Shown here piece after piece: positions 2,229 through 41,224 of a stretch of 64,000 nt of DNA; position 1 is the stretch's first letter, and the number at the start of each line of letters is the position of its first letter. The DNA comes from an uncultured Gammaproteobacteria bacterium (GTDB lineage: Bacteria > Patescibacteriota > Patescibacteriia > Patescibacteriales > UBA12465). The translations under genes and the position numbers were made by a program. Below the pieces are notes generated by a model. That model had not been told where the DNA came from. It made no database searches and saw only the letters and a program-made list of their open reading frames with translations. The stretch is taken from positions 21,404 through 85,403 of the forward strand of contig CAYPAP010000001.1 in assembly GCA_964408775.1 (NCBI GenBank), written 5' to 3'.

Positions 2229-3368
2229 CTAATGCACATCCAATACAAGATTTTGAAGCATCTCCTCTACAGATGGCTCAGAACCATCAACAATATAAAT
2301 ACGAGGGTCAAAAAATTGGAGTCTAGGAGTAGAAATAGTTGAATAATAATGATAAGTGCGATGTATTGTATAATTATTATCAGCTTTCCACTTAAAATCA
2401 TTAGCGGCAAAAACCTTATTACCATCAACATCATAAACACCAGAATCAACGCTCGCTACTGTGGCAGCAGTGTTATGAGGATGAGTATGGCCAACTATTA
2501 AGTACCATTTATCTTTATCAAAGTCGCTTATATTTCTATAAAAGAAATAGGGATTGGTATTTGAAGCGCCAGTAGTTAAAATAAAAACACCGGTATTAGT
2601 GCTACCCGAATAACCCCTTAAGCCAAGGTAGACTCTCCCGCTAGAATCAACCGATGTTTTTTTAAACCAAACAGAAAAACGATACATTTTTGTGCTATCA
2701 ATAGGCATGTCGGTATAAACGCTATTCCAGCCACCATCAGCGTTATTATCACCAACGGGGCGAGTTTCCCAAACAACACTTTCTTGACCAAAGGGGTTTG
2801 TTCCTAAAACCCTTTCATTTTCAGAGGTTAACCCATTTTGTGTAAAACTAAAAGAGCCTCCATATGTAGTTTTAGAAAGAGTCCCACTGCCGACTGCCCA
2901 ATTAGAGGAGTCAAATACAGGACTCGTAGGACTGCTGATGCCAGCGGGGGTAACCTTTTTTAAACCAGCTGTGTAATTTTCTACTTTTTCTGCAAGACAA
3001 AAATACATAAAATAACTATCCCCATCATCGGAGGAGGAATAGTTATAACTGCTATCCCCGCAAGTCATATCAGTATCATTAAGATTGCTTGGGACTTGCG
3101 ACATAAAAGTAACACCAGTAGAACTGCCTATTAGGGATTGGCCGGAGACTATAGAATCTGGGTAAGTGCCCTCTACCCTTTTATAATTCTCTAAAGCAAT
3201 CTGTATCTGATTAATATTATTTATTTTTTTAATTTCCCTTCCTTTTTGACGAGAATTGGATATAGATAAAAAAACCGTAGTTGCTATTAATGTTATTATA
3301 AAAATTACTCCTAAGAGTTCAATTAACGTAAAAGCCTTCCTTTGATAAAAAATCTTTTTAATACCCAT
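2229..3368 (-). CDS. Type IV pilin-like (prepilin-type N-terminal cleavage/methylation) protein with large C-terminal domain
   Basis: 379 aa; basic leader MGIKKIFYQRKA followed by FTLIELLGVIFIITLIA (class III signal, E at +5); ~300 aa beta-rich C-terminal domain of unknown function. Confidence 0.7.
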   Translation of the reverse strand: MGIKKIFYQRKAFTLIELLGVIFIITLIATTVFLSISNSRQKGREIKKINNINQIQIALENYKRVEGTYPDSIVSGQSLIGSSTGVTFMSQVPSNLNDTDMTCGDSSYNYSSSDDGDSYFMYFCLAEKVENYTAGLKKVTPAGISSPTSPVFDSSNWAVGSGTLSKTTYGGSFSFTQNGLTSENERVLGTNPFGQESVVWETRPVGDNNADGGWNSVYTDMPIDSTKMYRFSVWFKKTSVDSSGRVYLGLRGYSGSTNTGVFILTTGASNTNPYFFYRNISDFDKDKWYLIVGHTHPHNTAATVASVDSGVYDVDGNKVFAANDFKWKADNNYTIHRTYHYYSTISTPRLQFFDPRIYIVDGSEPSVEEMLQNLVLDVH

Positions 3369-17978: not shown

Positions 17979-18581
17979 TTAGACGCTAAAAGCGTTTTTA
18001 AAATTAACCTCCATAAAATCCCAATCTAATAATTCATTTATAACAACATCCAAATACTCGGCCCTTCTATTTCTATAGTCTACATAATAAGCGTGCTCCC
18101 AAACATCTATTGTTAAGAGGGGTGTTTGCCCCTGATTTAGGGGATTGATCGCGTTAGAGGTTGAAACTATTTTCATATCCTGATTATCTAAGACGACCCA
18201 AGCCCAGCCACTGCCAAATTGAGACAGGGCAACCTTTTTTAATTCTTCCTTGAACTCAAGCAAGGAAGAAAAATGCTCTTCTATTTTTCCTAATAAAAAT
18301 TTAGAGGGCTCTTTTCTTTTTGGACTTAAACTCTGCCAATAAAAATCATGATTAAAAACTTGAGCGGCATTATTATAAACAACTTTTAAGTTTTCCTGAT
18401 TAAAAGATTTTTTTATTATTTCTATCAGGCTTTTATCTTCTAAATCAGTTCCGGAAATTAATTTTAATAGATTATCGAAATAAGATCGATGATGCTTGCC
18501 ATGATGCAGATCAAAGGTCTCATTAGAGATTCTATTAGAGAAATTAGATGGGCTATAAGGTAGTTCAAAAAGATTTAGCAT
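17979..18581 (-). CDS. sodA: Fe/Mn superoxide dismutase
   Basis: 200 aa; 'DVWEHAYYVDYRNRRAEYL' C-terminal metal-binding signature. Confidence 0.9.
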   Translation of the reverse strand: MLNLFELPYSPSNFSNRISNETFDLHHGKHHRSYFDNLLKLISGTDLEDKSLIEIIKKSFNQENLKVVYNNAAQVFNHDFYWQSLSPKRKEPSKFLLGKIEEHFSSLLEFKEELKKVALSQFGSGWAWVVLDNQDMKIVSTSNAINPLNQGQTPLLTIDVWEHAYYVDYRNRRAEYLDVVINELLDWDFMEVNFKNAFSV

Positions 18582-18616: not shown

Positions 18617-19540
18617 TTATTTATATCTTATATAATTGTCCTCCGATAAAACATCTAGCTCAGGAATAATCTCTACTCGACTGACTGAGCTGATAGAGTT
18701 AACCCAAGAGATATTAATAGCTCTCTCCTCCATTGACATTAATTCATAAACCATATATTTATTCACGCCAATAATACTATTTTGATTAAATAACACTATA
18801 GACAATGGTACTTCCCAATAATTATAGGGGCTATTGTTTTTAATCTTAAAGCTTAGACTGTTACTATTACCGGGCTCAACCTGAGAGCCACTAATAGACT
18901 CAAATTTTTCATCTAAAATGTAAAAATTAGATCTATCTTTATAATAATTTTCCCAAGCTCCATAGCGCTTAACATCTACTCTTTGCCAATTAATATTTTT
19001 AATTACAAATTTTAAATTACTAATACGACCGCTAAAATCAACTGCTAAGTTTATTAGATATTTTTCCTCTTCGGGTAAAATTGTGGACCTACCGCAAGAA
19101 ACTTCAACATCCTCACTAAGAAAGCAATAGTTAACAAAAGAGATAAAATTATCGTTGGGATTTTTTATCCTATTAACAAAATCGTACTTACCATTATGAA
19201 GAAAACTCTGTGGAGAACCAACGCTCAGTGACTCGGCTGAACGAGTGGCACCAAAATTGACCGTGATAGTTGAAAGCTCTCTTAATATTCTTAACTCTTC
19301 TGGTCTGTTTTTTATATAAGAATAAAGATTTAAAAAAACCCTAGAATACAAAAAGATGGATAGTAAAATAAGGGCTAAAATTAAGATTATAACAAAAGAC
19401 CTTCGATTTCTTATAAACCATAAACCAAAGTTTAGGCGGCGCAAAGACTCCCCCTTATCACTATTATATTTACTAAGATCTATTTCTTTTTCCGTGTCAC
19501 CACGAAAGTCTTTTTCTAAATTATTTTTTTCATTGTCCAT
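18617..19540 (-). CDS. Hypothetical membrane-anchored extracytoplasmic protein
   Basis: 307 aa; charged N-terminus, one TM (FVIILILALILLSIFLY), large C-terminal domain with no recognisable motifs. Confidence 0.5.
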   Translation of the reverse strand: MDNEKNNLEKDFRGDTEKEIDLSKYNSDKGESLRRLNFGLWFIRNRRSFVIILILALILLSIFLYSRVFLNLYSYIKNRPEELRILRELSTITVNFGATRSAESLSVGSPQSFLHNGKYDFVNRIKNPNDNFISFVNYCFLSEDVEVSCGRSTILPEEEKYLINLAVDFSGRISNLKFVIKNINWQRVDVKRYGAWENYYKDRSNFYILDEKFESISGSQVEPGNSNSLSFKIKNNSPYNYWEVPLSIVLFNQNSIIGVNKYMVYELMSMEERAINISWVNSISSVSRVEIIPELDVLSEDNYIRYK

Positions 19541-27550: not shown

Positions 27551-28312
27551 TTAATGAATATGTAAAAGCAAATTTGTTGCCACCATCACCCCAAGACCAA
27601 GAAATATTCCTAGTAATTGCTTGAGGCTCTTGCTAATTTTAATTTCCTTTTTAAGCTCGGGAATCAAATCAGATGAAGCAATATAAATAAAGCCACCAGC
27701 AGTTATAGGGATAATGAATTCTATAAAGCCATCTAAATAAGTGCCCAATAGAATAACAATAAGGGCGCCCAAAATGGAGAAAGAAGCCGAAATAAAATTA
27801 TAAAAAAGGGCTTTTTTAACGGAATAACCAGCATGAATTAATACTCCAAAATCCCCTATTTCTTGAGGGACCTCGTGACTAATAACAGCAACGGTTGTTA
27901 AGACCCCTAAGCGAACATCCACTAAAAAAGCACCGGCGATTATCATACCATCTATTAAATTATGCAGACCGTCGCCTATTAAATTCATGGGACCAACCGG
28001 ATGAGGATGATCGTCGCAGGTTGGCTCATGGCAATGGCGCCAATGAATTATTTTTTCTAATATAAAAAATAAAATAATTCCCCCTAAAATTCCAAACCAC
28101 ACAGTGCTATCATGATGGTCAGACATTTCCACTGCTTCAGGAATAAGATGCAAAAAAGCACTCCCTAATAATGCCCCGGCTGACAAGCTGACTAAAAACA
28201 TTATTATTTTCTTAAGTCTTTTGATTGAAAAACTTAAAAAGAAAATCCCGATCAAGGAAACTAACGAGGTTATAACTGAAGCCCCTAAAATATAAAGATA
28301 AATCTGATTCAT
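27551..28312 (-). CDS. zupT: ZIP-family divalent metal transporter (ZupT-like)
   Basis: 253 aa; 'HEVPQEIGDFGVL' ZIP signature; His-rich loop HWRHCHEPTCDDHPHP. Confidence 0.8.
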   Translation of the reverse strand: MNQIYLYILGASVITSLVSLIGIFFLSFSIKRLKKIIMFLVSLSAGALLGSAFLHLIPEAVEMSDHHDSTVWFGILGGIILFFILEKIIHWRHCHEPTCDDHPHPVGPMNLIGDGLHNLIDGMIIAGAFLVDVRLGVLTTVAVISHEVPQEIGDFGVLIHAGYSVKKALFYNFISASFSILGALIVILLGTYLDGFIEFIIPITAGGFIYIASSDLIPELKKEIKISKSLKQLLGIFLGLGVMVATNLLLHIH

Positions 28313-28321
28313 ATTATTTTT

Positions 28322-28768
28322 TTATTTTTTAACCTTAGGGTTGATATCTTTTTTAGTCTTAGATTTTTTGGCCTTGGTTTTAGCAAATATTTCTGGATGA
28401 TTTTTATTATAAGAAGAGATAACCTCCCGTAATCCTTCCACCGCTAAAACCGAGCAATGAACTTTTTGTTGAGGCAAACCGTCTAACTTTCTAACAATTT
28501 CATTCCAATCAAACTTTTGAGCTTCCTCGAGGGACATTCCCTTGACCATCTCTGTCATAACAGAGGCAGTAGCAATATTAGAGGCGCAACCAAAGGAAAG
28601 GAATTTAATATCCTTAATTTTTCCGTCTTTAACCTTAATAGAGAAAGATAATTGATCCCCACAAACCATATTACCAACCTCAGCTGTAGCATCAGGATTC
28701 TTTATTTCCCCAATGTTTTTAGGGTGAAGAAAGTGCTTCATGGTCTTTTTACTATAATTTAATGCCAT
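28322..28768 (-). CDS. iscU: Fe-S cluster assembly scaffold IscU/NifU N-terminal-like
   Basis: 148 aa; conserved Cys residues in 'GNMVCGDQLSF...SFGCASNIATAS...HCSVLAVEGL'; Lys-rich C-terminal tail. Confidence 0.8.
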   Translation of the reverse strand: MALNYSKKTMKHFLHPKNIGEIKNPDATAEVGNMVCGDQLSFSIKVKDGKIKDIKFLSFGCASNIATASVMTEMVKGMSLEEAQKFDWNEIVRKLDGLPQQKVHCSVLAVEGLREVISSYNKNHPEIFAKTKAKKSKTKKDINPKVKK

Positions 28769-28979: not shown

Positions 28980-31076
28980 CTAACCCTCTAATTCTTCAGC
29001 CCTCTTTTGAATCAAGATTCTTAAATCATCTTTTCCGTTATTGTTTTTAATTATTTCCATTAATTCCTGTGCTGCTATTTTTGCCCAAACGACTTTTTTC
29101 TCATCGTGTCTATAATCTAGAGTTGTCTCCGGGTTGAAATTACTGACGCCGGCATCTCTTCGAACAGATCTGTCGTATTTTTGCCACATATAAAGCAACT
29201 CTCTAGCCATCTCTGTTTTTAGTTCTTCCTCAGTATTATACCTCTCTCGATTATCATTAAAATAATTAATCAGATCTCTATAATCTAGACCATGCTCAAT
29301 AGATATTTCGTCATCAATAAATCTACTAAGCTCTTCACTTATAAAGTGTTGCTTAATTTTCTCCTGATCCCTATACTCAACACTCTTATCGGCTTCCTTG
29401 TATAAATCATAATAATTAAATTCCCCTTCAGCAACGTCTTCTCTATTTAAATCTTTATCACTAAATATTTGTCGATGCCCAATATTTTGCTCATCCTCGT
29501 CTCCATCATCGTCGCCTCCCTCATTATCTTCATCATCATTTTCTTCTCCACCTTCATCTTCCTCTTCCCTTCTTCTCCACCATACAAAATTTGATGGTCT
29601 TTTTAATAATAAAAGAAGTAATAATAAAGGCAAAGGAAGAACTACTTGGGTTTTTTTACCTCCCTCAACTTCAATTTCAATATTTACTCCTCTCTTCGAT
29701 CCAACAATTTTATCCAGGGAATCTTTAACTGAAGATTCTAAATTATATTCACCAGAATTATATGCTGCAATTAAAGAAATGATCTTTTCCTCGTCGGAAC
29801 CACCACCAATTTCCAGACTATCAGCCAATTCTAACAACTCCTTCCATTCAGTATCAGAAAATTGAACTTCTTCGTAATTAATACTTTCTATAATTGAGGT
29901 GTCAATATTTCCCTCTTCCAATATTTCTCTTATTATATCCTCGGCCAATTCTCCTCTTTCTTTAGCTAGGCTAACATTTTCTTCCTCTACATTACCTGGC
30001 TTTACTGATTCAGGGTCATTTTTGCGTCCCTCTGGAGAGGAAAATCCCGTTATTTTGATTGCTTTCACTTCATTTTTGGAAAAAACATCTTTAAGCAAGT
30101 TATCTTTTTCTCCTCTAGTAGCCTCATAAACAGACTTTTTTTCACCAATTCTGACCAATTTATTAGCAAAAGCTGTTCTAATCTGATCCTTAAAATACTC
30201 CTCCATTTTGTCTTTGTCAGTTTCATTTGTTAGCTCTGATCCCTCAAATTTAGGAGCATAAGTATAGGGGACATTGATACTCTCACTTCCCTTTATTTCT
30301 CTATTAACCCCCAACTCTAAAGAGACAGGAGAAATTATCCCTCCCCAATTAAAAACAGTATCACTTTCTGAATTAACTTTATTAAAACGATGGTTTATAT
30401 CGAAAGAATAGGTTCTCTCTCCATATTCTGAGCTTGACTCCCTATCAATACCTCTAGTGTCCTCTAATTTATTTTTATCTTTTTCTAGATTAACATCAGA
30501 ACCCTCGTTACTAGTTAAAGAAGATGGTAATGATGTAAACATTAGAGCCAAAGCATAATATTTTATTGGCTTAATAGCAACAGAAAATTTATTTTTAAAA
30601 GATTCGTATTTTTCGTCAAAAAACTTTTTGAACGTAGAGGATTCATACTTATCAACCTCCTCTAAGACATTTTCTTCATTTAATGCAAAATTATCACTTT
30701 CAACTAGCTCTTTTTTAGATTCTTCACCATACTTATGAAAAATGGCTATTTTGCGACGTAACATTTCTATGTTCCTTAAGTGCATCTCCATAGTTTCCTG
30801 GTCAATATCTTCGCCCTTAGCAGACTCTTCTTTTAGAAAATTATACTCCTCTTCCAAATCTTTTTTGTGTAATTCAATCAAGTGCCCTGAAGGGTCTTTT
30901 TTGAATTCTTCATAATTATAGAAACTCTTTGTTCCTTCTTTCTCAGCTCCTCTTTGGGATTTAAGAAAATTTTCTCTCTTTAATAACTCAGAATCATACT
31001 TGTCTTTTTCGGTATCACTCTGTTTTTCTGGCTCTTTTTTTGAGCCTGGTTTAATAATTTTTTCAAAAAAATTCAT
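28980..31076 (-). CDS. Large hypothetical charged/acidic membrane protein
   Basis: 698 aa; Glu/Lys-rich coiled-coil-like N-terminal two-thirds; poly-Leu TM (VVLPLPLLLLLLLLKRP); D/E-rich block (EEEDEGGEENDDEDNEGGDDDGDEDE); possible OmpA-like segment 'ITGFSSPEGRKND'. Confidence 0.5.
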   Translation of the reverse strand: MNFFEKIIKPGSKKEPEKQSDTEKDKYDSELLKRENFLKSQRGAEKEGTKSFYNYEEFKKDPSGHLIELHKKDLEEEYNFLKEESAKGEDIDQETMEMHLRNIEMLRRKIAIFHKYGEESKKELVESDNFALNEENVLEEVDKYESSTFKKFFDEKYESFKNKFSVAIKPIKYYALALMFTSLPSSLTSNEGSDVNLEKDKNKLEDTRGIDRESSSEYGERTYSFDINHRFNKVNSESDTVFNWGGIISPVSLELGVNREIKGSESINVPYTYAPKFEGSELTNETDKDKMEEYFKDQIRTAFANKLVRIGEKKSVYEATRGEKDNLLKDVFSKNEVKAIKITGFSSPEGRKNDPESVKPGNVEEENVSLAKERGELAEDIIREILEEGNIDTSIIESINYEEVQFSDTEWKELLELADSLEIGGGSDEEKIISLIAAYNSGEYNLESSVKDSLDKIVGSKRGVNIEIEVEGGKKTQVVLPLPLLLLLLLLKRPSNFVWWRRREEEDEGGEENDDEDNEGGDDDGDEDEQNIGHRQIFSDKDLNREDVAEGEFNYYDLYKEADKSVEYRDQEKIKQHFISEELSRFIDDEISIEHGLDYRDLINYFNDNRERYNTEEELKTEMARELLYMWQKYDRSVRRDAGVSNFNPETTLDYRHDEKKVVWAKIAAQELMEIIKNNNGKDDLRILIQKRAEELEG

Positions 31077-31993: not shown

Positions 31994-32146
31994 TACTTTT
32001 GCATGAACTTATAGATTCCGTACAACACTAGCGCAGCAATAGAGACTATAACCGAAGTCATCGGATTCCACATCGCAGAAAATAATACTATTAAAGCAGC
32101 TATTATTGCAAAGCCCCCTTCTTTTTTTGAGTCTAGTTTTTTCATG
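31994..32146 (-). CDS. Small hydrophobic peptide (50 aa), possible membrane micro-protein
   Basis: MKKLDSKKEGGFAIIAALIVLFSAMWNPMTSVIVSIAALVLYGIYKFMQK; below the ORF-track size cut-off; start codon overlaps the recombinase ORF start on the opposite strand. Confidence 0.3.
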
Positions 32147-32176
32147 GTGATTTACATTAAATTAATAAAGAAAAAT

Positions 32177-32970
32177 ATGCAAACTCAATTAAATCTCTTA
32201 AAAAGAGAGTTAAAAATAAGGAATTATAGCCCCAAAACTATTGCGTCCTATCTTTATGGGTTAAAAGAATATCTAACATTTAAAAAAGAAAAATTAGGTA
32301 CTTTCGATGAAAATATTATTAAAAATTTTCTTTTAAGTTCTAAAAGCAAAATATCTCCACAAAGTCAAAACATATATCTCGGAGCTATTAAGTTTTATTA
32401 CTATAATATTATTAAAATTAACAAAAAAATAGAAATAAAATCAGTTAAAAAAATCAAAAAACTTCCCGTGGTTCTCTCGCGCCAAGAAATAGAAAAAATA
32501 TTAAATTCAATTTCTAATAAAAAACATAAATTATTAATAGCAGTCTCTTATGGAGCGGGGTTGAGAGTAAGCGAAATTATTTCTCTAAAAGTTAAAGATG
32601 TTGATTTAGAAGAACTAACAATACATATCAAAAACGCCAAAGGAAGAAAAGATCGAATTAGCATATTACCAGAAAAAATAGTAAAAGACCTGAGAGAAAT
32701 AATTGAATCTAAAAATTTAAATAACTATATTTTTGGGAGCAACAGAGGCGGAAAATTGAATTCTAGAACTGCTCAAAAAGTTTTTGAAAAGGCCTTGAAA
32801 AAGACGCCACCTTCCACAGCTTGCGTCATAGCTTCGCTACTCACCTATTAGAAAACGGGGTTGATGTTCGCTATGTTCAGGAATTATTAGGTCATCAAAA
32901 CATTAGAACAACTCAAATCTATGTCCAGGTTACTAATCCTAAATTAAAAAATATAAAAAGTCCCTTATGA
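32177..32970 (+). pseudogene. XerC/XerD-like tyrosine recombinase disrupted by a 1-nt frameshift in an A-run (~32797-32803)
   Basis: N-terminal SAM-like domain (MQTQLNLLKRELKIRNYSPKTIASYLYGL...); the annotated frame ends '...[17 protein letters not shown]', while the +1 frame continues '[40 protein letters not shown]' (catalytic HxxR...Y region) to TGA at 32968-32970. Confidence 0.75.
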
Positions 32971-32973
32971 CAA

Positions 32974-34125
32974 TCATCTTATCGGGCTAAACTTCCTCAA
33001 CCTCTCCACCGTCTTAGCTAATTTAGCTACAACATAATCAACCTCTTTCTTGTTATTGTATCTCCCCCAAGAAAACCTAACATTACTATTCATATATTTT
33101 TTATCAATTCCCATAGCAGTGATTACCGAAGAAACCTTAAGATTCTGAGCTGAACAAGCCGAACCAGTAGAAACATAAATTCCAGAAACAGATAAGTCAA
33201 TCAAAATCGCCTCCCCTTCTATACCCTCGAACATAATATTCAAATTATTTGGCACTCTATTTTTTAAATCACCATTAAGCCGAATATTTTTTATTTTTTT
33301 AGCTACTTCCTTCCAAAAATAATCACGTAATTCTTTTACTTTTTTTAAATATTCGCTTCTTTCAGCGTAAGCCAACTTCAAAGCCTCGGTCATACCAACA
33401 ATTCCAGCCATATTATAGGTTCCGGCCCTTAGCCCATTCTCCTGCCCCCCACCAACAATTATTGGCCTTATTTTCACATCTTTGTTCACATAAGCCAAAC
33501 CAACCCCCTGAGGTCCATAAAATTTATGAGCCGACAAAGATAAAAAATCAACTCCCCATTTTTTAATATTAATTTTTAAATATGGCACGGCCTGGACAGC
33601 ATCGGTGTGAAAATACACCCCCTTAGACCGAGCAATTTTTCCAATCTCCTCCATCGGTTGAATACTGCCGACTTCATTATTGACCGCCATAACTGAAATT
33701 AAAACTGTATCTGGTTTTATCTTTTTCTTCAGCTCCTCTAAAAGAACTACTCCGTTTTTATCTACTGGAATATAATCAAATCTAAAACCTTCATCCAATA
33801 ACTCTCTAGCTGAAGCCAAAACACAGGGGTGCTCAATAGCGGAAATTAAAAAATGTTTACCCTTATCAGAATTAGCGCGCATTACTCCTTTAATAATCAG
33901 GTTATTAGCCTCAGTGGCAGTGGAGGTAAAAATAATATTATCAGCTTGACCATGCAAAATTTTAGCAATATCTTTTTTACATTGATTAATTTTAATATCA
34001 TTTTCCTGACCCATAAAATGAATGGAGGAGGCATTGCCATATTTAGTATCAAAATATGGCATCATTTTTTTTAATACCCTTTTGTCAATCTTGGTAGTGG
34101 CGGCGTTATCTAAATATATTTGCAT
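32974..34125 (-). CDS. iscS: Cysteine desulfurase (IscS/NifS)
   Basis: 383 aa; 'MQIYLDNAATTK' start and PLP lysine motif 'SLSAHKFYGPQG'. Confidence 0.9.
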   Translation of the reverse strand: MQIYLDNAATTKIDKRVLKKMMPYFDTKYGNASSIHFMGQENDIKINQCKKDIAKILHGQADNIIFTSTATEANNLIIKGVMRANSDKGKHFLISAIEHPCVLASARELLDEGFRFDYIPVDKNGVVLLEELKKKIKPDTVLISVMAVNNEVGSIQPMEEIGKIARSKGVYFHTDAVQAVPYLKINIKKWGVDFLSLSAHKFYGPQGVGLAYVNKDVKIRPIIVGGGQENGLRAGTYNMAGIVGMTEALKLAYAERSEYLKKVKELRDYFWKEVAKKIKNIRLNGDLKNRVPNNLNIMFEGIEGEAILIDLSVSGIYVSTGSACSAQNLKVSSVITAMGIDKKYMNSNVRFSWGRYNNKKEVDYVVAKLAKTVERLRKFSPIR

Positions 34126-36739: not shown

Positions 36740-36805
36740 ATTGACTTTTGTATAAAAATATGATATAATATAGCTGTTTATAACTAAAGAATAAAATTTT
36801 TGAAT

Positions 36806-36836
36806 AAAGAAGCTCTGAGGGCTTCTTTATTTTTTG
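36806..36836. terminator. Hairpin aaagaagc-tctgagg-gcttcttt followed by attttttg
   Basis: 8-bp perfect stem; T-run on the plus side, weaker on the minus side. Confidence 0.5.
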
Positions 36837-36858: not shown

Positions 36859-37131
36859 TTATTTATCCTCAAACAAACAACTCTTAATCTCCAACCCCTC
36901 TATCTGCCCTAGTCCCAACATAAAAGAATCAATTTTCTCTTTATCAGCTTTAAGAACTAAAACTATTAAACCTGGGCAATTTTCGGTACAATTCTTAGAA
37001 ACATTAACCCCTAAACGAGACATAATTAAGTGTCCATTTTTAGTTAAAAAATCGTTTAACTGACTAGAAACCCTTTGCCTATTAGTTGTTAAAATTGAGA
37101 TACTGGCTAAATGTTCCATATTTTTGATCAA
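36859..37131 (-). CDS. Small hypothetical protein immediately 3' of hydA; possible NikR-C/ACT-like hydrogenase-system regulator
   Basis: 90 aa; alternating hydrophobic pattern suggests an ACT/NikR-C-like fold; the family assignment (iron-only hydrogenase system regulator) is inference from size and context only. Confidence 0.3.
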   Translation of the reverse strand: MIKNMEHLASISILTTNRQRVSSQLNDFLTKNGHLIMSRLGVNVSKNCTENCPGLIVLVLKADKEKIDSFMLGLGQIEGLEIKSCLFEDK

Positions 37132-37149
37132 ATTAATTTTAAATTATAA

Positions 37150-38883
37150 TTAAACTAAGTTAATTTTGTCTTTTTTCTTTTTGCTATATTTGGTATGAAG
37201 AACTCTATGATCCTGACTATTATTTTTTAACCATTTAACCACTTCTACGGCCCCCTTATTATCATGGGCTGTTCTTATTTTAATCTTTTTATCCCCTTGA
37301 TACAACCCGGCCGTTCTTTTTGATACAATTTCCATAGAACTAGGTATGGGTTGACCACCGCCACCAATACAACCACCTGGGCAAGCCATCACTTCAATAT
37401 AATCATATTTAGACAAATTGTCCAGCACTCCCTTAATATTACCTATACCATTAACTACTGCTACATTTAATTTTTTACCGGATAAATCAATTTTAGCCTC
37501 TTTTACACCCTCTAAGCCACGCACCTCTTTAAATTCTAGTCTAGAACGACATATTTTAGCTTTTTTAGGGTCACAGATAACATGATGCGCCGTCCTAAGA
37601 GCTGACTCCATAACACCGCCACTAGCCCCATAAATAATTCCGGCCCCACTGCCGTCATTTATTAAATCATTAGATTTTTCTGGTCTTAATTTCTTAAAGT
37701 CAATATTGTTCTTCTTTATCATAAAAGCTAACTCTCTGACCGTTAAAACCTTATCCACCGGTTTTAACTTACCAATTTTAAGCTCAGGCCGAGAAATTTC
37801 AAACTTCTTAGCCGTGCAAGGCATAATAGAAACAATAACAATATCCTCGGGTTTAATTTTTTTCTTTTTAGCCCAGTAGGTTTTAATAATTCCACCTAGA
37901 TGAATTTGCGGCGAACGAGAGCTTGTGAGATGCGGAATTAAATCAGGCCTATAAAACTCTAAGTATTTAACCCAAGCTGGACAACAAGAAGTCATTAAAG
38001 GTAACCCAGCCTTTTTATCATTCAATCTTTCTAATAATTCCTCGGCCTCAACTAAAGTAGTTACATCGGCGCCAAAAACCACATCCATAACCTGGTCAAA
38101 TCCTAATTTCTTTAAGGCTGCTACCATTTTTCCACTATTATTTTGCCCGTAAGGCAGGCCGAACTCCTCTCCAATAGAAACCCTGGTTGAAGGAGCAATC
38201 ATGGCTATTAAAGTTTTCTTACCTTTTTTAGCTAAAATGTCTTCCACTTCCCCCCAATTATATTGCTCCTGAGCTGAGGCCACTGGACAATGGAGAGCAC
38301 ATTGCCCACAATAAATACAATCGATATTGGGGTCTTGAGTAGGCACTATTTCCTGCGCAGCTCCCTTCCCTTTTATTTCTAAGTAATTTATTTTTTGAAT
38401 ATCAGAGCAAGCATCCACACAATTACGACAATCTATACACTGAGACCCATCAATTTCCACGGCATTAGCAAATTTATATGTTTTACGTTTTACTTTTCTG
38501 TCTTGAAAATTAGTAACTTTCAAATCATACTTTTTTGCTAGGTTTAATAAATCACAATTATATTTTAAAGTGCAACCAAAACATTTCTCAGTATGTTCGG
38601 CAAAAATTAATTTCAAATTAGTGTTACGAGCTTTTTTAACTTTAGGCGAATTTGTAAATATTTCTATTCCATTCTCGGCTAAAACTGAACAAGAGGTCAT
38701 TAATTTATCACAATCCTTCACCTCAACCACACAAACACGACAATTAGCCTTAATTTTTAGGTCTGGGTGATAACATAAAGAAGGAATAAATATTTTATTA
38801 TTCCGAGCTATTTCCAAGATAGTCTGACCTAAATAGCCCTGACATTTTTTACCATCTATTTTTATTTCTATTTTTTTTGGCAT
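37150..38883 (-). CDS. hydA: [FeFe]-hydrogenase catalytic subunit HydA (M3, CpI-like)
   Basis: 577 aa; N-terminal 2Fe-2S ferredoxin-like domain; 4Fe-4S motifs CIDCRNCVDAC and CIYCGQCALHCP; H-cluster motifs L1 'TSCCPAWV', L2 'MPCTAKKFE', L3 'ACPGGCIGGGGQP'. Confidence 0.9.
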   Translation of the reverse strand: MPKKIEIKIDGKKCQGYLGQTILEIARNNKIFIPSLCYHPDLKIKANCRVCVVEVKDCDKLMTSCSVLAENGIEIFTNSPKVKKARNTNLKLIFAEHTEKCFGCTLKYNCDLLNLAKKYDLKVTNFQDRKVKRKTYKFANAVEIDGSQCIDCRNCVDACSDIQKINYLEIKGKGAAQEIVPTQDPNIDCIYCGQCALHCPVASAQEQYNWGEVEDILAKKGKKTLIAMIAPSTRVSIGEEFGLPYGQNNSGKMVAALKKLGFDQVMDVVFGADVTTLVEAEELLERLNDKKAGLPLMTSCCPAWVKYLEFYRPDLIPHLTSSRSPQIHLGGIIKTYWAKKKKIKPEDIVIVSIMPCTAKKFEISRPELKIGKLKPVDKVLTVRELAFMIKKNNIDFKKLRPEKSNDLINDGSGAGIIYGASGGVMESALRTAHHVICDPKKAKICRSRLEFKEVRGLEGVKEAKIDLSGKKLNVAVVNGIGNIKGVLDNLSKYDYIEVMACPGGCIGGGGQPIPSSMEIVSKRTAGLYQGDKKIKIRTAHDNKGAVEVVKWLKNNSQDHRVLHTKYSKKKKDKINLV

Positions 38884-39884
38884 AAATTTGGATAAACATT
38901 TTTAAAATAACTTAAAATAGCGATAGGAGCACAGGCCCCCAAGGCGCAAAAAGAAGATGTTTCTAAATTTTTACATAAATCAACAAAATCACTAACATCT
39001 TTTAAATATGAACGTTTATTTTTAAATAACTCTAATAAACGATAAGTGCCCTCGCGGCAAGGAGTGCATTGACCGCAAGAATTATCGGCGAAAAAACTCA
39101 ACCAATAATTAACCAGCTTTTCAGGTCGATGATTAGAAAGTTTATAAATAGTGATAGACCCGGCACCGGGAACTTTTCTTCTTAATTGTTTCTGATTAAA
39201 TACTTCCCCGCTAGCATCTCCGCCCACTTGAACAAAAAAATCGTATTTAGGATAGTTTTTAGTTTTGATTAAAACATCTTTAATACTTAAATCATCTGGC
39301 AAACTATAAACACCCTTGTTTTTATTTTCTATATTAATAGAATAAAATCTCTCACCAGAAAATTTATTTATACTAACTAAATAAACGTCATATAAGGTCT
39401 CAATATTATTAATCAAAGTCGGTTGGCCAAAAAGTCCCTTTTCGGTTGGAAATGGGGGGCGTAATCGAGGTTCGGCTCTCCCGCCTTCAATGATATTTAA
39501 AATAGTACTTTCCTCCCCACCAATATATCCAGCCCCTTTTGGTTTTTTGATTATTTCAAATTTCCCCTTTAAACCAGCCTTATTAAATTCTTTTATTATC
39601 TTGTTCTTATAAATATCATAATATTTACCATTGAGATAAAAATAAATTTTGGTAGCCTTAATGGTGTCGGAGGCGATCTTAACACCAATAGAAAATTCTT
39701 TTAATAAATTTTTAATAATATAACCATCCTTATAAATACCAGGTTCTCCCTCGGCTCCATTTATTATTAAATATTTAGTTTTGCTTTTAGCCTTGGCTAC
39801 GGATTGCCACTTAATATGAGTTGGGAAACCAGCCCCACCTCGGCCAAGCAAACAAGCTTTTTCTATTTTTTTTATTATCGACAT
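38868..39884 (-). CDS. NuoF-like (51-kDa/HydB-type) NAD(P)H-binding flavoprotein, minimal form
   Basis: 338 aa; 'GRGGAGFPTHIKW' FMN/NADH motif very near the N-terminus; C-terminal 4Fe-4S motif 'SCGQCTPCREG'; overlaps the hydA start by 16 nt (operonic). Confidence 0.75.
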   Translation of the reverse strand: MSIIKKIEKACLLGRGGAGFPTHIKWQSVAKAKSKTKYLIINGAEGEPGIYKDGYIIKNLLKEFSIGVKIASDTIKATKIYFYLNGKYYDIYKNKIIKEFNKAGLKGKFEIIKKPKGAGYIGGEESTILNIIEGGRAEPRLRPPFPTEKGLFGQPTLINNIETLYDVYLVSINKFSGERFYSINIENKNKGVYSLPDDLSIKDVLIKTKNYPKYDFFVQVGGDASGEVFNQKQLRRKVPGAGSITIYKLSNHRPEKLVNYWLSFFADNSCGQCTPCREGTYRLLELFKNKRSYLKDVSDFVDLCKNLETSSFCALGACAPIAILSYFKNVYPNLCQKK

Positions 39885-39915: not shown

Positions 39916-39988
39916 GTCATCCTCCGCTCAGATTATTCTTCGAGTAATTGAGCAAACCCACTCGATAGCAAGGCTATCCGAATGGGTA
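39916..39988 (-). repeat. Third, diverged (~84% identical) inverted copy of the 73-bp element, ~30 nt upstream of the NuoF-like start
   Basis: Minus-strand sequence 'tacccattcggatagccttgctatcgagtgggtttgctcaattactcgaagaataatctgagcggagg' aligns to the 23381 unit; both predicted stems kept via compensatory changes (G-C to A-U twice) and C-G to U-G wobbles. Confidence 0.8.
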
Positions 39989-40213
39989 AATTTATTAATT
40001 ATCCTAATTCTCCTAAATATCCCCCTTCCTGCCTTTGTGCTTATCCTTGCGACTATACTTCTTCTTATTCTTATGAGCCCCACCTTTAAGGCAAAAGGCT
40101 CCGGAGCCAGTTTCTAAATCAGCCTCTCGCCCTCCTTTTTTTAGGCCTTTTAATAAAACCCTTTTCTTATCTTCGTCTGATAAGTTAAAAGATAAATTTT
40201 CCTTCATAATAAG

Positions 40214-41224
40214 TTAGAATAAATATTTAATTAAATCAGCCAAGCGGTAAGAATAGCCCCATTCATTATCATACCAGGCGACAACTTTGACTAAATCGCC
40301 ATCCATTACCCTAGTTAGTGACAAATCAACTATAGCACTATGATCATTACCAATAATATCGGAAGAAACCAAGGGCTCGGAAGATGCTTCTATTATATTT
40401 TGATATTTTTTGTTTTTAGAAACTCTGATAAAATTATTATTTATTTCCTCAACTGTAGTTTTCTTTTTTAGTAAAAAAACAACATCACACATTGATCCGA
40501 CCACTACCGGCACTCTAACAGCCAACCCATCGAAAGACCCCTTTAGGGATGGAATTATTTTATTAATAGCGATAGCTGCTCCGGTCGTTGTTGGTACTAT
40601 ATTTATAGCTGCCGAACGAGCTCGACGCAAATCTTTATGGGGACCATCTACTAAATTCTGGTCAGCAGTATAAGCATGAATAGTCGTCATTAAAGCTTTT
40701 TTAATACCAAATTTTTGCCTAATAATATCGGTTACTGGGGCTAAACAATTAGTAGTACAAGAAGCGCAAGATAAAATTTGATCTTTCTTGCTAATTTTAT
40801 TTTCATTTACTCCTAAAACTATTGTTTTAACTCCTCCCTCACCCTTAGCCGGGGCGGAAAGAATAACCTTTTTGGCGCCAGCCTTAACATGCAACATTAG
40901 CCCCTCTTTATTAGTAAAGCGACCTGTGCACTCTAGAACTACATCGACTTTCATCTTTGCCCAAGGCAATAGGCTCGGATCTTTTTCTGATAAAACTGGA
41001 ATCTTCTTACCATTAACAATAATGTTTTTTTCATCATGAGAAACTTTCTTGCCATAAACTCCATAAGCTGAATCATATTTAAGCAGGTGGGACAGAGTTT
41101 TGGTATCAGTCAAATCATTAATAGCCACAATATTATAATGTGGATATTTTTCTGAAATAATTTTAAAAACAGCTCGGCCAATACGGCCAAAACCATTAAT
41201 AGCGACATTCAATTTTTTAGGCAT
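40214..41224 (-). CDS. gap: Glyceraldehyde-3-phosphate dehydrogenase
   Basis: 336 aa; 'INGFGRIGR' NAD motif and 'SCASCTTNCLAP' active-site Cys motif. Confidence 0.95.
   Translation of the reverse strand: MPKKLNVAINGFGRIGRAVFKIISEKYPHYNIVAINDLTDTKTLSHLLKYDSAYGVYGKKVSHDEKNIIVNGKKIPVLSEKDPSLLPWAKMKVDVVLECTGRFTNKEGLMLHVKAGAKKVILSAPAKGEGGVKTIVLGVNENKISKKDQILSCASCTTNCLAPVTDIIRQKFGIKKALMTTIHAYTADQNLVDGPHKDLRRARSAAINIVPTTTGAAIAINKIIPSLKGSFDGLAVRVPVVVGSMCDVVFLLKKKTTVEEINNNFIRVSKNKKYQNIIEASSEPLVSSDIIGNDHSAIVDLSLTRVMDGDLVKVVAWYDNEWGYSYRLADLIKYLF

Follow-up and report, generated by a model that had tools for sequence, protein, structure and literature searches.

How might a bacterium pass electrons from reduced nicotinamide adenine dinucleotide (NADH) to protons with little more than a hydrogenase catalytic subunit and an unusually short flavoprotein? 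This question is raised by a group of three co-oriented genes in a 64,000-nucleotide stretch of contig CAYPAP010000001.1, referred to here as the window, from a Falkowbacteria-like bacterium of the candidate phyla radiation (CPR). The genes encode a short flavoprotein of the NuoF type, the [FeFe] hydrogenase subunit HydA, and a small protein of the TM1266 family. The answer proposed here, with moderate confidence, is that they specify a cytoplasmic, two-subunit, NADH-linked and non-bifurcating [FeFe] hydrogenase, which recycles the NADH produced by glyceraldehyde-3-phosphate dehydrogenase (GAPDH). The genes present, their motifs, the fold, the synteny across the clade, the missing NuoE nearby and purifying selection are observations, from which assembly of the complex, specificity for NADH, the direction of catalysis and the lack of bifurcation are inferred.

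HydA contains three H-cluster motifs, namely TSCCPAW (residues 298–304), MPCTAKKFE (residues 354–362), and EVMACPGGCIGGGGQP (residues 497–512). These are preceded by an F-domain of the M3 type, comprising a [2Fe-2S] cluster, a His-ligated [4Fe-4S] cluster and two further [4Fe-4S] clusters, after which the H-domain begins. The corresponding ligands are present for each accessory cluster (C37, C48, C51, C65; H97, C101, C104, C110; C149, C152, C155, C159; C189, C192, C195, C199), and the Pfam domains comprise Fer2_4, NADH-G_4Fe-4S_3, two 4Fe-4S domains (Fer4_7), Fe_hyd_lg_C (291 bits), and Fe_hyd_SSU. The cluster ligands and all three H-cluster motifs, including the proton-relay cysteine, are retained in at least 52 of 53 CPR homologues. 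HydA scores 442.8 bits against TIGR02512, the "group A" model with a cutoff of 405.95. Its best NCBIfam model is NF040763, "NADH-dependent [FeFe] hydrogenase, group A6", which is matched end to end over residues 5–569 at 624.2 bits, under the cutoff of 765. Judged by these models and motifs, HydA is predicted to be a catalytic group A [FeFe] hydrogenase of the non-sensory type. Among PDB sequences, it reaches 451 bits with HydA1 of Acetobacterium woodii and Thermoanaerobacter kivui and 386 bits with CpI, and is thus nearer to the HydA of multimeric NADH-linked enzymes than to CpI.

The flavoprotein consists of an FMN (flavin mononucleotide)- and NADH-binding domain, a ubiquitin-like domain, and a four-helix domain for an N3-type [4Fe-4S] cluster, and of these domains only. 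In Pfam it matches Complex1_51K (PF01512, 108 bits) and NADH_4Fe-4S (PF10589, 65 bits). No NCBIfam model reaches its cutoff with this protein, and the NuoF equivalog TIGR01959 yields 203.8 bits, well under the cutoff of 558.65. The protein aligns with residues 53–427 of Nqo1 from Thermus thermophilus, having about 50 N-terminal residues fewer, and an 11-residue "GAxW[F/Y]" loop is deleted in the CPR flavoprotein. Compared with the bifurcating-type HydB of locus L079, both the N-terminal [2Fe-2S] domain and the C-terminal domain with two [4Fe-4S] clusters are missing. Another candidate for this reference, L063 from a metagenome-assembled genome (MAG) labelled "Acetobacterium woodii", was rejected, as its NuoF has about 400 residues and the gene downstream is weakly HydA-like (26% identity over residues 5–408).

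The flavoprotein is predicted to fold as a complete NuoF core. The AlphaFold2 model is confident (predicted local distance difference test, pLDDT, 88.3; predicted TM-score, pTM, 0.88), and Foldseek comparison with HydB, HoxF, NuoF, and FdsB results in TMq values of 0.84–0.88. Alignments of 20 and of 81 family members identify G14, G17, K25, N42, E45, E47, P48, K52, D53, Y120, C270, C273, C276, and C313 as invariant. These residues belong to the FMN phosphate loop, which includes the GRGGAGFP motif beginning at G14, and to EGEPG and YIGGEE, and they supply all four ligands of the N3-type cluster. E125, the second glutamate of GGEE, is almost invariant; we take it to be the equivalent of E183 in Escherichia coli NuoF, which selects NADH over NADPH. 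A preference of the flavoprotein for NADH would be in line with this residue.

An earlier note on this DNA, made from the letters alone, had described a HydA with three H-cluster motifs and a CpI-like accessory-cluster layout, a NuoF-like protein of 338 residues with GRGGAGFP at residue 14, and an overlap of 16 nucleotides between the two genes. The translations and coordinates of the open reading frames (ORFs) bear this out, the shared nucleotides being 38868–38883 at the 3' end of the nuoF-like gene and the 5' end of hydA; the CpI-like layout is indeed present in domains and ligands, however, the sequence of HydA lies closer to that of HydABC enzymes. The note had also considered that HydA might be sensory and that the flavoprotein might lack FMN-binding residues. 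The score above the TIGR02512 cutoff and the intact motifs point to a catalytic HydA, and the retained FMN loop, EGEPG, YIGGEE, and N3 cysteines, together with the confident fold, argue for an intact flavin site.

The main additional interest of the locus lies in an architecture shared across the clade, which is linked to GAPDH and has no NuoE/HydC-type subunit encoded nearby. A scan of species-representative genomes provided 80 comparable loci, 53 of the CPR type and 27 from outside the CPR. A NuoE/HydC hidden Markov model (HMM) was built from 11 proteins whose genes immediately precede that of NuoF in non-CPR loci and used in a six-frame segment search. Neither the 64-kb window nor any of the 53 CPR loci, with 10 kb on either side, gave a match at E < 1. 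As a control, nearly all of the 27 non-CPR loci were matched beside NuoF, with E values from 1e-11 to 1e-60. The absence of NuoE near these genes is a property of the whole clade and not a limit of the window. Nearly all larger ORFs of the window were covered by precomputed or direct Pfam annotation, which identified none resembling NuoE, HydE, HydF, or HydG, as the earlier note had already stated for both the 24-kDa-type subunit and the maturases. In the literature, no description of a NuoE-less HydA–NuoF pair in CPR bacteria was found, an earlier report being possible and the coverage of the search incomplete.

In 17 loci, the nuoF-like gene and hydA are separated by 0.55–1.2 kb. These gaps were considered as a place where NuoE might be hidden, which was rejected, as they encode membrane proteins (YciC/UPF0259-like or resembling the S component of energy-coupling factor transporters, ECF-S-like). 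The former is a multi-pass membrane protein of about 255 residues with weak matches to the YciC/UPF0259 families, located between the flavoprotein gene and hydA in loci of the Falkowbacteria type, 14 of the 53 CPR loci (e.g., L015:1949–2707). The latter has about 180 residues, scores 27–28 bits against PF12822 (under the gathering score of 30.7), and adjoins the flavoprotein or HydA genes in 27 of the 53 CPR loci, for instance at L014:13846–14385 and L040:10994–11536; it is not encoded in the window. A "hyd6TM" protein has been described as accompanying group A [FeFe] hydrogenases in DPANN archaea (Greening et al. 2024, PMC11216029), and the ECF-S-like protein may be the same protein. As a guess, it could import riboflavin or a cofactor for the FMN enzyme.

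The pairing of flavoprotein and HydA extends well beyond the window. More than 120 database relatives of the flavoprotein share at least 49% identity with it and have lengths of 326–376 residues; wherever a source is given, they are named as Patescibacteria or Falkowbacteria, with one exception labelled Planctomycetes. The short NuoF is present in all 53 CPR loci (median 341 residues, range 324–369 among complete ORFs), which span Falkowbacteria, Magasanikbacteria, Gracilibacteria, Peribacteraceae, and Berkelbacteria as well as MAGs with placeholder taxon labels. HydA follows the flavoprotein in every CPR locus in which downstream sequence is present. In 33 loci, the two genes overlap or lie less than 150 nucleotides apart, which suggests translational coupling.

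A further conserved neighbour is GAPDH: in 37 of the 53 CPR loci, its gene lies no more than 10 kb from the short nuoF, mostly directly upstream and on the same strand. The earlier note had pointed out GAPDH just upstream of the hydrogenase genes as consistent with a fermentative link, and this observation now gains the weight of the related loci. In the window, GAPDH carries the aspartate of the "INDL" motif, typical of NAD-dependent GAPDH, and is the probable source of NADH for the hydrogenase. The conserved neighbourhood suggests that the physiological task of the module is the reoxidation of glycolytic NADH. Downstream, a CCA-adding enzyme is encoded in 26 of the 53 loci. A different setting is seen in the Magasanikbacteria-type locus L040 (10001–17833), with the gene order short NuoF, ECF-S-like protein, HydA, pyruvate/2-oxoacid:ferredoxin oxidoreductase (POR), and ADP-forming acetyl-CoA synthetase. 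The hydrogenase of L040-type loci is located within a ferredoxin-generating fermentation cluster rather than beside GAPDH.

In the proposed enzyme, NADH supplied by the adjacent GAPDH would donate a hydride to the FMN of the short NuoF-type subunit, from which electrons would move one at a time onto the sole N3-type [4Fe-4S] cluster, coordinated by C270, C273, C276, and C313. They would then enter the NuoG-like N-terminus of HydA, passing the [2Fe-2S] cluster, the His-ligated [4Fe-4S] cluster, and the two [4Fe-4S] clusters, until the H-cluster as final acceptor would reduce protons to H2. In complex I and HydABC, NuoF docks to a NuoG-like domain such as this N-terminus (Fer2_4, NADH-G_4Fe-4S_3), and it is by analogy with these two systems that we infer the electron path from NADH via FMN, N3, and the HydA clusters to the H-cluster. 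The complex would work without a NuoE/HydC-type [2Fe-2S] subunit and could also operate in reverse, while the TM1266-like protein may serve as an accessory or regulatory component. Under standard conditions, the reduction of protons by NADH is endergonic, and a net release of H2 would therefore require a low H2 partial pressure (tens of Pa) and hence H2-consuming neighbours. Reoxidation of NADH to H2 has been reported to need H2 at tens of Pa, and a biochemically characterised non-bifurcating NADH-dependent [FeFe] hydrogenase makes 2–40 Pa of H2 (PMC7311640).

Whether such an enzyme bifurcates electrons can be approached through diagnostic residues. Bifurcating HydB proteins are characterised by A/E at position 232 of Thermotoga maritima HydB, Met at 234, Phe at 367, and a GGPSG signature, while the non-bifurcating pattern comprises T/S at 232 and K/S/A at 234 (PMC7311640). 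In the CPR flavoprotein, the invariant K52 corresponds to position 234. A non-bifurcating NADH:H+ oxidoreductase is favoured because the extra Fe-S domains and HydC are missing and Lys replaces the Met of bifurcating enzymes. HydB F367 was placed in the "GAxW[F/Y]" loop by counting from GGPSG (residues 427–431). The same counting ruled out that this criterion refers to the tyrosine of the GAGA[F/Y] motif.

Several points weigh against the proposed function. The flavoprotein has I/V at the equivalent of HydB 232, which is neither A/E nor T/S, and the segment with the third diagnostic residue, HydB 367, is deleted. The SLBB region reads GGDASG and thereby resembles the bifurcating GGPSG. At the flavin site, Ala takes the place of Nqo1 D94 (NGAEGEPG, a state shared with RnfC-type sites), which may affect FMN binding. 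To our knowledge, every structurally characterised NuoF-type flavoprotein has a NuoE-type partner, and the stability and activity of such a protein on its own are therefore putative; the gene for a NuoE-like protein or for some other partner could lie at a distance of more than 10 kb. In some relatives (L040), HydA adjoins POR, and ferredoxin may also feed HydA. In addition, HydE, HydF, and HydG are missing from the window.

One alternative is that HydA is mainly a ferredoxin-dependent fermentative hydrogenase like CpI, with the flavoprotein as a side entry or exit that equilibrates the enzyme with NAD(H), resulting in a combined hydrogenase and NADH:ferredoxin link. The complete CpI-type M3 accessory layout would suit such a function, as would the POR and ADP-forming acetyl-CoA synthetase adjacent in L040-type loci. 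Yet Pfam annotation revealed no ferredoxin or POR gene in the window, the most conserved neighbour is the NADH-producing GAPDH and not POR, and flavoprotein and HydA are strictly inherited together, their ORFs often overlapping. This alternative is considered unlikely.

We regard as rather improbable that the module is an electron-bifurcating or -confurcating A3-type enzyme, which oxidises NADH and reduced ferredoxin together and whose HydC-like subunit or ferredoxin-binding partner is encoded elsewhere. Surveys usually classify HydA with a NuoF-like neighbour as A3 (PMC5520028), HydA has its closest match in the HydA of bifurcating HydABC, GGDASG is similar to the signature published for bifurcating HydB (PMC7311640), and POR adjoins HydA in Magasanikbacteria-type loci. 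The flavoprotein, however, is devoid of the additional Fe-S domains that bifurcating HydB carries and has K52 in place of the Met associated with bifurcation. Moreover, NuoE/HydC is encoded within 10 kb in 0 of 53 CPR loci, whereas it is adjacent in nearly every non-CPR locus.

A third alternative concerns the direction of the same reaction, with environmental or host-derived H2 being taken up to produce NADH for a cell short of reducing power. The reaction is reversible, the HydAB of Syntrophus aciditrophicus works both ways (PMC7311640), and many of the loci originate from metagenomes of groundwater and the subsurface, settings in which elevated H2 can occur (PMC5520028). Uptake as the physiological direction is nevertheless distinctly improbable, since the conserved GAPDH linkage and the glycolytic context suggest a need for NADH reoxidation, and the window contains no obvious NADH-consuming respiratory genes. 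The weakest alternative, that HydA is never matured for want of HydEFG and the module is inactive or non-catalytic, can draw on the absence of these genes from the window and on the many DPANN and Asgard genomes that contain [FeFe] hydrogenases and also lack maturases (PMC11216029), but is most improbable given H-cluster ligands and motifs kept in at least 52 of 53 homologues, the low ratio of non-synonymous to synonymous substitution rates (dN/dS) of HydA (0.06–0.10), a retained TM1266-family gene, and maturase genes in CPR relatives, both within the hydrogenase cluster of L018 and in separate hydGEF loci on other contigs.

The maturase genes of CPR bacteria occur in three arrangements: within the hydrogenase cluster, in a separate hydGEF locus, and inside [NiFe] hydrogenase operons. 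The first is represented by L018, which encodes HydG (557 bits), HydE (319 bits), and HydF (311 bits, just below the cutoff) between hydA and the TM1266-like gene. The full order at L018:10001–17553 is short NuoF, HydA, HydG, HydE, HydF, TM1266-like protein, ECF-S-like membrane protein, and CCA enzyme, with 47% identity between the flavoproteins; this order links the TM1266-like gene physically to the maturase genes of L018. In L092, L094, and L095, the maturase genes are located away from any hydA. L092 contains stand-alone hydG, hydE, and hydF, and on the contigs behind L094 and L095 a radical-SAM gene lies beside hydF. It is plausible that the genome from which the window derives also encodes its maturases elsewhere.

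The third arrangement was found in several CPR lineages, where HydG and a HypC–HydE fusion are encoded inside a [NiFe] group-3b-like operon (L085:6865–14430, L088:6605–15402, L090:170–7099). HydG of these operons matches TIGR03955 with 599 bits, and the fusion protein scores 56 bits for HypC (cutoff 48) and 285 bits for HydE (cutoff 254.6). The operon contains genes for the beta, gamma, small, and large subunits and HypA and lies beside phosphoglycerate kinase and enolase, with no HydF nearby. In an earlier study, only a "hypC-like" family was noted in this operon (Jaffe et al. 2020, PMC7304191). To find [FeFe] maturases within a [NiFe] operon is unusual; they might serve both enzymes or might supply CO and CN ligands to the [NiFe] site. 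One possibility is that many CPR genomes mature their [FeFe] enzyme with a non-standard set without HydF, such as HydG and the HypC–HydE fusion of the [NiFe] operon.

The third gene of the module encodes a protein which the earlier note had tentatively described as an ACT/NikR-C-like regulator. Its assignment to the TM1266 family, the putative "iron-only hydrogenase system regulator" proteins, is supported by a match to PF21699 (37.5 bits, gathering score 27) and by a full-length match to PDB entry 2nzc (E 2.6e-4), while TIGR03959 yields 40.4 bits (cutoff 60.8) and NF052672 yields 42.5 bits (cutoff 85). The protein is assigned an ACT/NikR-C-like fold, and its regulatory or accessory role is putative. 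The gene is present downstream of HydA in 16 of the 53 CPR loci. In the window, an in-frame ATG at 37119 would shorten the 90-residue ORF to 86 residues and is more likely to be the start than the TTG.

The features of the locus are compiled in the table below.

Features of the hydrogenase locus, with positions in the 64-kb window and the basis of each assignment
Feature	Position	Strand	Basis
Short NuoF-type flavoprotein (HydB-like), 338 aa	38868–39884	-	Pfam/NCBIfam, alignments, AlphaFold2, Foldseek
HydA, predicted group A [FeFe] hydrogenase catalytic subunit, 577 aa, M3 architecture	37150–38883	-	Pfam/NCBIfam, motifs
TM1266-family small protein, 90 aa from TTG	36859–37131	-	PF21699, PDB 2nzc
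GAPDH, 336 aa, upstream of the hydrogenase genes	40214–41224	-	Pfam Gp_dh_N and Gp_dh_C
Lys/Gly-rich ORF, 64 aa, between GAPDH and the nuoF-like gene	40013–40207	-	Gene call on the ENA contig
Palindromic hairpin, 14-bp stem	36802–36832		Between the TM1266-like stop codon and the CCA-adding-enzyme gene

The genes of the locus are under purifying selection. Relative to three close relatives, dN/dS amounts to 0.12–0.16 for the flavoprotein, 0.06–0.10 for HydA, 0.17–0.23 for the TM1266-like protein, 0.07–0.17 for the 64-residue ORF, and 0.06–0.08 for GAPDH, values that are approximate because dS is saturated. The 64-residue ORF has no match in Pfam or NCBIfam. It was found in L002–L004 with 65–73% identity and is probably a real small protein, as it is conserved in the three closest relatives at the dN/dS given. 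The base composition is even along the window, and there is therefore no sign of a recent insertion. The hairpin is a consensus match only, with a weak T-tail on the minus strand, and is probably the terminator that closes the hydrogenase transcription unit. Within the 128-nucleotide spacer 5' of the flavoprotein gene lies an imperfect inverted repeat, ACCCATTCGGATAGC...CTATCGAGTGGGT, at 39940–39985 (minus strand). It has no Rfam match and could be a terminator of gap and the 64-residue ORF or a regulatory site. A search of the window with Rfam at gathering threshold and a tRNA scan identified no RNA elements.

Further genes of the window concern iron–sulphur assembly and oxygen. A ZIP metal transporter, an IscU/NifU_N scaffold, and a NifS-like cysteine desulfurase are encoded 3–9 kb downstream of the hydrogenase genes, at 27551–28768 and 32974–34125 (both minus strand). 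The scaffold and desulfurase genes are syntenic in 13–16 of the CPR loci, so that the Fe-S-rich hydrogenase is accompanied by genes for Fe-S assembly. An Fe/Mn superoxide dismutase gene is present at 17979–18581 (minus strand), the organism relying on an [FeFe] hydrogenase that is sensitive to O2. Transcription of the window is nearly all from the minus strand, and the GC skew is negative throughout. A phage-type integrase/recombinase gene (32144–32851, plus strand) is one of only two sizeable plus-strand genes. Three minus-strand ORFs, at 28980–31076, 18617–19540, and 2229–3368, encode proteins of 698, 307, and 379 residues without a Pfam match.

Taken further, a broader proposal can be made, which we put forward tentatively and with less than even confidence: CPR bacteria may possess a heterodimer simpler than any other natural NADH-linked hydrogenase known, its NuoF-type flavoprotein of 38 kDa wiring NADH straight into a CpI-like HydA without a NuoE/N1a partner. 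Tied to GAPDH over much of the radiation, it would be the main route back to NAD+, with no need of ferredoxin, respiration, or organic electron sinks. An active heterodimer would show how ultra-small fermenters balance their redox state, namely by venting glycolytic NADH as H2. Such cells would depend on H2-scavenging neighbours and add to the subsurface H2 flux. For surveys, the rule that HydA with a NuoF-like neighbour represents a bifurcating group A3 enzyme would misassign the CPR clade. The role of cluster N1a has long been debated, and the CPR enzymes would amount to an experiment of nature, asking whether flavin sites of the NuoF type depend on NuoE and this cluster. The two genes would also be a minimal scaffold for NADH-driven H2 production.

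The module can be compared with several known systems. Like the TM1266 family (TIGR03959/PF21699; 2nzc), its third protein is a small, ACT-like protein aligned over its full length and encoded near [FeFe] hydrogenase or maturase genes, but it falls under the equivalog cutoff of TIGR03959, and the regulator function of the family is itself putative. CpI of Clostridium pasteurianum, a monomeric ferredoxin-dependent A1 enzyme, shares the M3 layout and has H-cluster motifs identical to those of the CPR HydA. In contrast, it has no flavoprotein partner, and its score with the CPR HydA (386 bits) is below that of HydABC HydA. In complex I (NuoEF or Nqo1–Nqo2; 2fug, 6hl2), the FMN loop, the N3 cysteines, and the fold are shared (156 bits to Nqo1, TMq 0.84), and the electron acceptor is a NuoG-type [2Fe-2S]/[4Fe-4S] domain, as in the CPR HydA. 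Complex I differs in its NuoE/N1a partner and membrane arm, both missing from the CPR module, and in D94 of Nqo1, which is Ala in the CPR flavoprotein.

The bifurcating HydABC enzymes of group A3 (Thermotoga maritima, A. woodii, T. kivui; 7p5h, 7q4v, 8a6t) provide the best PDB sequence match for HydA (451 bits). The core of their HydB superposes on the CPR flavoprotein with a TMq of about 0.86, and the order is the same, with the flavoprotein gene beside hydA. They possess HydC, an N-terminal [2Fe-2S] domain and a C-terminal domain with two [4Fe-4S] clusters in HydB, and an extra C-terminal domain in HydA, none of which is present in the CPR proteins, and they have Met at HydB 234 where the CPR flavoprotein has Lys. 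The "A3" enzymes of DPANN archaea have been reported with both nuoF-like and nuoE-like genes (PMC8421398, PMC11216029).

The closest functional analogues are Hyd1ABC of Syntrophomonas wolfei and HydAB of S. aciditrophicus, both of which retain a NuoE-like module. These enzymes are non-bifurcating, NADH-dependent, and ferredoxin-independent (Losey et al. 2017, 2020; PMC5626996, PMC7311640). S. wolfei keeps the NuoE-like [2Fe-2S] module as subunit Hyd1C, whereas none is encoded near the CPR flavoprotein in any of the 53 loci; in S. aciditrophicus, the module forms a fused N-terminal part of the 66-kDa HydB, compared with about 38 kDa for the CPR flavoprotein. Relative to the HydB proteins of Syntrophus and Syntrophomonas, the latter also lacks about 50 N-terminal residues and the GAxW[F/Y] loop and has I/V instead of T/S at position 232. 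Shared with the CPR module are a group A HydA with a NuoG-like N-terminus, a NuoF-type flavoprotein without C-terminal ferredoxin-like clusters, and Lys at the equivalent of HydB 234. The predicted chemistry is likewise the same, namely NADH + H+ ↔ NAD+ + H2 at low H2 partial pressure.

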